A stretch of 58,890 nucleotides of DNA from a virus (taxonomy: Duplodnaviria; Heunggongvirae; Uroviricota; Caudoviricetes). The stretch lies in the IMG/VR virus record IMGVR_UViG_2526164617_000008; one strand, given 5' to 3'. Under the pieces are notes generated by a model. It did not search any database, was not told the DNA's origin, and saw nothing but the letters and a program-made list of their open reading frames with translations. Shown here piece after piece: positions 1-962 of this stretch. The translations under genes and the position numbers were made by a program. Each line of letters begins with the position of its first letter. Position 1 is the first letter of the stretch.

Positions 1-354
1 ACTGCAACGGCCGGTAATACACGCCGCCGACGTTATCTGCCGTATTCTTACCGACATCCTGTACTTTAATTCCGGTAAGAACATTGCCGCCCCCCAGATT
101 CAGATCCCAGCTTTCCCATGTTCCGGGCATATGTGCGGTCACCGACCCCAGTCTTATGGCGGTTACTGTTCCTGATGAGATAGTGATATCCTGCGTCCCG
201 TCAAAGGGAACACCATTAATTGTGTGGGCATTTGCCAGCCTGTTCGCGGCAACGGCGGTGCCGTCCGATGGCAGGGCATTCGCCGCCCTGTTTACCGTTT
301 CCCGTAAACCGAGGTTTTCAGGAAAGCCAGGATTAACTCTGTTTTATTCCTCAT
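1..354 (-). CDS. Tail-fibre variable C-terminal segment, partial (runs off window start); silent-orientation copy of an invertible segment
   Basis: Minus-strand frame reads ...NRLANAHTINGVPFDGTQDITISSGTVTAIRLG...VYYRPLQ, tail-fibre-tip-like; its 5' end overlaps the crossover site next to the invertase gene. Confidence 0.4.
299..324. promoter_or_regulatory. Gin/Pin/Hin-type recombination crossover site (gix/pix-like, 26 bp)
   Basis: ttcccgtaaaccgaggttttcaggaa is an imperfect dyad closely matching recalled gixL TTCCTGTAAACCGAGGTTTTGGATAA; lies 65 bp upstream of the invertase start. Confidence 0.5.
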
Positions 355-389
355 GCGACAATTCCGGCTTTTTATAATAAGGAAATCGT

Positions 390-962
390 ATGCTGATTGG
401 GTATATCAGGGTGTCAACAAATGACCAGAATACGGCGCTACAAAGAAATGCGCTGGAATGTGCAGGATGTGAGCTGTTTTTCGAAGACAGAATAAGCGGT
501 AAGACAAGGGAGCGTCCCGGACTTAAACGCGCATTAAAGCGACTCCGGCCAGGGGATACCCTGCTGGTCTGGAAACTGGATCGCCTTGGACGCAGTATGC
601 AGCACCTTGTCCTTTTAACAGAAGAACTCCGGCAACGCGGCGTTAACTTCCGCAGCATTACGGACAATATTGATACATCCACTCCCATGGGACGTTTCTT
701 TTTCCATATAATGGGCGCGCTGGCGGAAATGGAGCGGGAACTCATTATTGAACGTACACGCGCGGGTCTTGCTGCTGCCCGTGCTCAGGGGCGTCATGGC
801 GGCAGACCTCAGAAACTGACAGAGAAAGAGCGGGAGCAAATCGCCCGTTTGCTGGCTAATGGCGAGTCCCGTAAACAAATCGCACTGATATTTGATATTG
901 GCCTTTCCACCCTTTATCGTTATTTTCCTGCCTCACCAGCTCCGTCACCAAAAGTACCGTGA
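390..962 (+). CDS. pin: Serine DNA invertase (Pin/Gin/Hin/Cin family)
   Basis: 190 aa; MLIGYIRVSTNDQNTALQRNAL...WKLDRLGRS resolvase catalytic domain and C-terminal HTH; AAGGA Shine-Dalgarno upstream. Confidence 0.9.
   Translation: MLIGYIRVSTNDQNTALQRNALECAGCELFFEDRISGKTRERPGLKRALKRLRPGDTLLVWKLDRLGRSMQHLVLLTEELRQRGVNFRSITDNIDTSTPMGRFFFHIMGALAEMERELIIERTRAGLAAARAQGRHGGRPQKLTEKEREQIARLLANGESRKQIALIFDIGLSTLYRYFPASPAPSPKVP

Follow-up and report, generated by a model that had tools for sequence, protein, structure and literature searches.

In bacteriophage Mu, the arrangement of gix sites beside the invertase Gin is a proven invertase substrate. The gix site is located within the S coding sequence, and the crossover falls in the fibre motif ...NLGL.ETVNRA... 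at about codon 170. The Mu fibre is 504 aa long, the invertible segment measures 3.0 kb, there are two tail-fibre-assembly (tfa) genes, U and U′, and gin abuts com. Cin of P1/P7, Pin of e14 and Hin of Salmonella belong to the same invertase family and also have 26-bp dyad sites. P1/P7 and e14 likewise switch the C-termini of tail fibres, whereas Hin switches a flagellin promoter and not a fibre; P1/P7 have a site that overlaps the 3′ end of cin, a segment of 4 kb and a separate chaperone for each tip. In E. coli, a canonical Mu-like G segment is that of strain FDAARGOS_1059 (CP066032), whose inversion was confirmed by long reads (Milman et al. 2023, PMC9881135). It has the full Mu layout, with a 488-aa fibre, two tfa genes, a 326-aa silent tip and the invertase directly beside com.

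The locus described here lies at the left edge of a stretch of 58,890 bases, the whole of which is called the window in what follows. Positions 1–962 hold, with high confidence, the end nearer the invertase of an invertible tail-fibre segment of the Gin type, which belongs to a Mu-like E. coli prophage. They carry an invertase of the Gin family, a crossover site and a silent fibre tip, and relatives of identical sequence provide the partner site and both exact products of the inversion. The order of genes is the same as in Mu, namely, baseplate gp47/gp48, fibre, invertible segment, invertase and com/mom, and the central GA/TC of the sites is that of gixR/gixL. The constant part of the fibre (the first 198 residues of the 296-aa form) is 47% identical to residues 1–191 of Mu S. 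The crossover has the same place in the fibre gene, in the same motif, at about codon 177. In contrast to Mu, the segment measures 1.3 kb, and the fibre has 296 or 293 aa and lacks the Mu shaft; the tips, of about 90 variable residues, resemble Mu S and S′ only weakly, at the extreme C-terminus. A single tfa gene is present, and about 3.4 kb of cargo separate the invertase from com. The prophage of FDAARGOS_1059 resembles this one in being an E. coli Mu-like element with com/mom and an invertase adjoining an invertible fibre segment and differs from it in the points of layout given above for that strain. The switch is a member of the well-known Gin/Cin/Pin/Hin family and a minor architectural variant within it. 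The features are collected in Table 1.

Table 1: Features at the left end of the window, with the basis of each assignment.
Feature	Position	Strand	Basis
Silent alternative fibre tip B, Sv′-like	1–342	−	Translation; PHROG 1833; start-less frame
Right arm of the ~150-bp imperfect inverted repeat flanking the invertible segment	171–319		Repeat search on L001; arm alignment
26-bp crossover site, gixR-like	299–324	+	Unique in the window; central crossover dinucleotide GA at 311–312
Site-to-invertase spacer	325–389	+	TATAAT hexamer at 373–378; direct reading of the sequence
DNA invertase, 190 aa, small serine recombinase (Gin/Cin/Pin/Hin family), intact	390–962	+	Pfam, PHROG, PDB, tblastn
Putative recombinational enhancer-like region (sis/cin enhancer, Fis-binding)	408–475	+	Homology; 5′ part of the invertase gene
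com and mom	4437–5328	+	RefSeq annotation of identical sequence (Com family regulator, Mom family protein); Pfam Zn_ribbon_Com, Mom
Prophage right terminus	5456		Window and two other lysogens diverge from exactly this base

The product of the invertase gene matched Pfam Resolvase (1.6e-51) and HTH_7 (4.9e-15), PHROG 125 DNA invertase (1.9e-94) and, over residues 1–184, the PDB entries 4M6F/3UJ3 of Gin (E about 1e-88). By tblastn, it is 73.9% identical to Mu Gin and 72.6% identical to P7 Cin. It has the build of a small serine recombinase, with about 190 aa, a catalytic domain containing Ser9 and a C-terminal HTH, and reading of the translation showed catalytic Ser9, D64, R65, R68, H106 and M114 in place. 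The last two are the wild-type residues at positions changed in activating or Fis-independent mutants; the Gin sequences of the PDB have V at 114, while the window invertase has the wild-type M114. The protein is identical to the recombinase WP_000904914.1 found at two of the related loci, those of strain JKHS016 (L002) and of L003.

By homology to what is annotated in P7, where the enhancer occupies nt 19–86 of cin, the 5′ part of the invertase gene probably contains a Fis-bound enhancer. The corresponding 68 nt of the window are 81% identical to Mu gin and 78% identical to P7 cin, and conservation at third-codon positions is higher than in the 68 nt that follow, in a coding region that is itself strongly conserved. 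A simple rule for Fis sites passed one conserved 15-mer, GTGCAGGATGTGAGC, which is common to the window gene, Mu gin and P7 cin; two clean Fis sites 48 bp apart were not found in this region.

The crossover site is an imperfect dyad on the plus strand, TTCCCGTAAACC-GA-GGTTTTCAGGAA (whole site TTCCCGTAAACCGAGGTTTTCAGGAA), with 10 of 12 positions shared between its half-sites TTCCCGTAAACC and TTCCTGAAAACC. It occurs once in the 58,890 bases when up to 3 mismatches are allowed, it had no match in 100 shuffles, and it is identical to Mu gixR at 21 of 26 positions. The preliminary description had placed a gix/pix-like dyad of 26 bp at 65 bp upstream of the invertase gene, and this was borne out: 65 bp separate the site from the ATG at 390. 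A dyad of this length adjoining the invertase gene is the arrangement of the Gin/Cin/Pin/Hin (Din) systems. The promoter of the invertase is presumed to lie in the spacer, which contains the hexamer given in Table 1; the promoter scan called no consensus promoter between 325 and 389. A second site elsewhere in the window, as would be expected of a circular record or of a fibre gene at the far end, was also considered and rejected. None was present when up to 3 mismatches were allowed, and the core pattern AAACCNNGGTTT did not exceed its chance frequency.

As in Mu, the site is located inside a fibre frame. The minus-strand frame is open from 342 to 1, has an in-frame stop directly upstream and no start codon, and through the site it reads ...NPGFPENLGLRETVNRAANALPSDG... 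/ ...PENLGLRETVNRAANALPSDG.... It matched PHROG 1833, “tail fiber protein”, with E = 3e-30 over profile positions 173–310 of 322, that is, in the C-terminal part of the profile. The similarity came from PHROGs, and the Pfam search of the fibre frames gave no match. The frame had been taken beforehand for a tail-fibre tip running off the window, with a lack of tail-fibre similarity named as grounds for refutation; the profile match supports that assignment, and the frame is indeed open to base 1. In identical genomes, the last 13 codons and the stop lie within 40 nt to the left of the window edge. It had also been proposed that the dyad coincides with the 5′ end of this frame. The two do overlap, but the site is located 18 nt inside the frame and not at its end.

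The sequence to the left of the window was reconstructed from relatives. Positions 1–3200 were 99.9–100% identical to four E. coli chromosomes. The locus of strain DLI.5a (L001) is equal to the window over the part compared (1–700) and has, further on, one frameshifting indel in its invertase gene; L003 shows 2 mismatches in the first 3,200 bases. Both of them, the two of the four that were retrieved, have an inverted partner site, TTATCGATAACG-TC-GGTTTACGGGAA, whose central dinucleotide is that of the window site and which lies 1,317 bp further left. It is identical to Mu gixL at 22 of 26 positions and is located inside the active 296-aa fibre gene; in the genome of the window, TTATCGATAACGTCGGTTTACGGGAA would be expected about 1,317 bp left of position 299. 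The inverted partner was also present in 12 further loci, with a spacing of 1,314–1,317 bp. The earlier expectation that the partner site and the constant fibre part lie to the left of the window, which the lack of a second site within a few kb was to have refuted, was thus confirmed in L001 and L003; for the genome of the window itself the same position is probable, judging from these relatives.

Leftward from the window edge, the relatives have the stop of the silent tip, a hairpin, a single tfa gene (173 aa, Caudo_TAP 4.8e-19) and the 3′ end of the 296-aa fibre gene. The hairpin is terminator-like, with a folding z-score of −3.15. In L001 it corresponds to positions 19932–19951, an 8-bp GC-rich stem between the convergent tfa and silent-tip genes, some 50–70 nt left of the window edge. 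After inversion it is located directly behind the stop of the tip-B fibre and is followed by a T-rich tail, like a terminator in common use by the operon. No complete E. coli genome in the collection covered at least 80% of the first 25 kb of the window, and its right flank was present in none of the 10 lysogens retrieved by exact look-up of the invertase protein.

Positions 1–5456 are the right end of a transposable Mu-like E. coli prophage with com/mom. Up to 5456 the window is collinear with DLI.5a and JKHS016, and from 5457 the three are wholly divergent, where the window continues into a match with an unrelated chromosomal region. In 10 further lysogens, the host genes downstream of mom were different in each. 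Taking into account the common terminus and the different downstream genes, the element is a transposable phage, of which the window holds the last 5.4 kb. While com/mom and the terminus are in the window, the early genes were seen in relatives only: the prophage region of DLI.5a includes Mu transposase, AAA ATPase, Gam, Mor, lysis genes and com/mom, and in NCCP 13983 the same sequence is preceded by a complete Mu-type baseplate block. The cargo between the invertase and com (1048–3722) consists of a gene for a 684-aa protein with SASA (sialate O-acetylesterase-like) and DUF6645 domains, followed by DUF1378 and DUF826 genes, and looks like phage cargo.

Some of these relatives raise the question of whether the switch is a fossil. 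The prophage could be defective, or the partner site or the constant fibre part could have been deleted, so that the invertase and its site would be relics with no effect on a virion. The most that the enzyme could then do is to flip DNA or to serve other prophages in trans. The two copies of DLI.5a and that of JKHS016 have lost head and tail genes, the invertase genes of DLI.5a are annotated as frameshifted, some strains keep only the 3′ end of the invertase region (matches H22–H25), and the window itself covers no more of the prophage than its last 5.4 kb. We consider this reading unlikely. The invertase of the window is intact and identical to the protein of many lysogens with complete tail and baseplate modules, L001 and L003, which agree with the window as given above, both carry the partner site, and the variety of insertion sites implies that the phage was active until recently. 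A functional switch is preferred, and the window's own copy probably still flips.

The two DLI.5a copies are internally deleted prophages in opposite orientations, with the invertase genes annotated as frameshifted at 20390–20961 of L001 and 4991–5562 of L085. The frameshift of L001 falls in a T-run. Either the mutation is real, and flipping would then depend on an invertase acting in trans, or the homopolymer was assembled wrongly.

It is also conceivable that the host has adopted the switch, the flipped fibre fragment serving as a surface-blocking or defence protein and not in phage host range. PinQ-driven inversion of the e14 P segment makes a chimeric Stf protein that blocks adsorption of T2 (PMC12529663), which is the precedent for such a role, and the deleted prophage copies keep the block of fibre, tfa and invertase genes. 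Most copies, however, belong to prophages whose tail and baseplate modules are complete, as would suit ordinary use in the virion, and we regard adoption by the host as very improbable.

Evidence that the segment inverts comes from the comparison of relatives in the two states, which are called orientation A (that of the window) and orientation B (flipped). When the DLI.5a segment of L001 was inverted in silico between the centres of the two sites, the result was the sequence of JKHS016 (L002), with 0 mismatches across the segment. Junction-specific searches were carried out in 5,426 complete E. coli genomes: junction A, the gin-proximal junction in the window orientation, was complete in 4, at 99.8–100% identity, and junction B in 18. 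All 10 places retrieved by exact look-up of the invertase protein, 8 of them new, were in orientation B with a site spacing of 1,314–1,317 bp. In total, 26 of the loci examined are in the flipped state and 4, plus the window, in the window state. DLI.5a and TOE17 each have one copy in either orientation. The segment had been described from the window as an invertible one caught in a single orientation, and this agrees with the relatives: natural strains have exactly the product that inversion would give, and near-identical prophages are found in either orientation, as evidence between strains and not within one culture.

An imperfect inverted repeat, about 150 bp long, has the two crossover sites at its outer ends. 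In L001 its arms are 18987–19072 and 20234–20319 (86 nt, 93% identity) and 19086–19135 and 20171–20220 (50 nt, 84%), and they encode the conserved ETVNRAANALPSDGTAVAANRLA...INGVPFDGTQDI stretch common to both tips. We asked whether the start of the window could be an assembly break at this repeat, and rejected it: the repeat spans 171–319 and the window starts 170 nt beyond. The arms are identical for 36 nt from the central dinucleotide inward and differ at the first outer base. Considering that the identity is limited to these 36 nt, the exchange took place within a 37-nt interval that holds the centre of the site. Homologous recombination by RecA between the flanking repeats, in place of the invertase, is extremely improbable as the origin of the two orientations: the 36 nt are the longest block of perfect identity, so the mapping alone would fit RecA too, but a block of this length is a poor RecA substrate, it starts exactly at the central dinucleotide of gix-like sites adjoining a Gin orthologue, the same arrangement in Mu is an invertase substrate, and the inversion of the Mu-like segment of FDAARGOS_1059 was confirmed by long reads (PMC9881135).

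With inversion by the invertase as the preferred reading, the following mechanism can be proposed. Dimers of the 190-aa serine invertase would bind the two inverted 26-bp sites, one at 299–324 and the other in the fibre gene, 1,317 bp further left. The synaptic complex would be assembled, on the model of Gin, Hin and Cin, by the putative enhancer in the invertase gene with Fis bound to it, and the invertase would cleave at the central GA/TC and rotate the strands so that the segment flips. The flip would swap the last ~90 variable codons of the fibre gene, in an exchange that starts from about codon 177. In orientation A, the constant part is joined to tip A and followed by the single tfa gene, and tip B (342 to 1) is silent and faces the invertase gene head-to-head; orientation B joins the constant part to tip B.

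The fibre that results from the junction of the constant part with tip B is the 293-aa protein WP_000469166.1. The exchanged part runs from about residue 177 to the end, roughly 115–120 residues in each isoform. Its first ~26 codons are the same in both tips, and the isoforms differ only in the last ~90 residues. By analogy with Mu and P1, the two tips would recognise different receptors and thereby define the host range.

The locus departs from the two-chaperone layout in its tfa gene. There are two tips and one Caudo_TAP gene; the same search finds two in Mu and in P7, as in the S-U and S′-U′ pairs. In orientation B, which is the commoner state in lysogens, the sole tfa gene runs antisense to the fibre operon, which leaves the fibre without a co-oriented chaperone, and the terminator-like hairpin comes directly after the fibre stop. 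The promoter scan found no sigma-70-like promoter on the tfa strand in this orientation, a negative that does not argue against a promoter there. It may be that tip B needs no co-expressed chaperone for folding, or that expression of tfa takes some other route. A stronger reading, which we put forward with considerable doubt, is that the switch is asymmetric, with a tfa gene behind the fibre gene in one orientation only. If tip B does fold without co-expressed Tfa, or if the flip is partly an on/off control of the chaperone and not a plain swap of two equivalent cassettes, the switch would be a variant of the Mu paradigm.

For comparison, enterobacterial loci with related invertases were retrieved, ten of which had a recognisable pair of sites. 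Most of the ten have two tfa-like genes between the sites. Segments with a single tfa were found in prophages of Siccibacter turicensis (L007, 5198–6900), Erwinia rhapontici (L029, 5026–6417) and Salmonella enterica (L032, 4167–5989). The single-chaperone layout offers a modest lead on how short fibre tips fold.

The relevance of the locus is mainly for annotation, and little beyond. RefSeq labels the genes as “recombinase family protein”, “hypothetical protein” and “phage tail protein (partial)”; what they encode is the Gin-type invertase, both isoforms of the fibre and the silent tip, in a Mu-like prophage that is widespread in E. coli. It is because of the switch that near-identical strains show two different proteins for one fibre gene, that a “truncated” tail gene is found beside a recombinase and that draft assemblies tend to break at this locus. 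In other Enterobacteriaceae, 15 draft contigs end 66–190 nt upstream of a related invertase gene (L008, L010, L013, L015, L016, L018, L019, L021, L024, L025, L027, L028, L030, L034, and L038), and from the position of these ends the assemblies evidently break at the invertible segment.

Further features were noted in the rest of the window. About 350 bp past the prophage end at 5456, an IS110-family transposase occupies 5800–6976, its ORFs starting at 5800; its coding sequence is shared between DEDD_Tnp_IS110 and Transposase_20, two ORFs that overlap, an arrangement suggestive of a frameshift. On the minus strand, from about 15,900 to 38,000, there is a structural module of a lambdoid prophage in a stretch of 55–59% GC, with genes for a 1,029-aa tail fibre, a 1,165-aa J-type tip attachment protein and the gpA large terminase; the window search detected no Gin-type site near its fibre gene. 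Further to the right, a general porin (44942–46084), a transposase with rve and Mu-transposase C-terminal domains (49653–50822) and a LacY-type symporter (52329–53576) are encoded.
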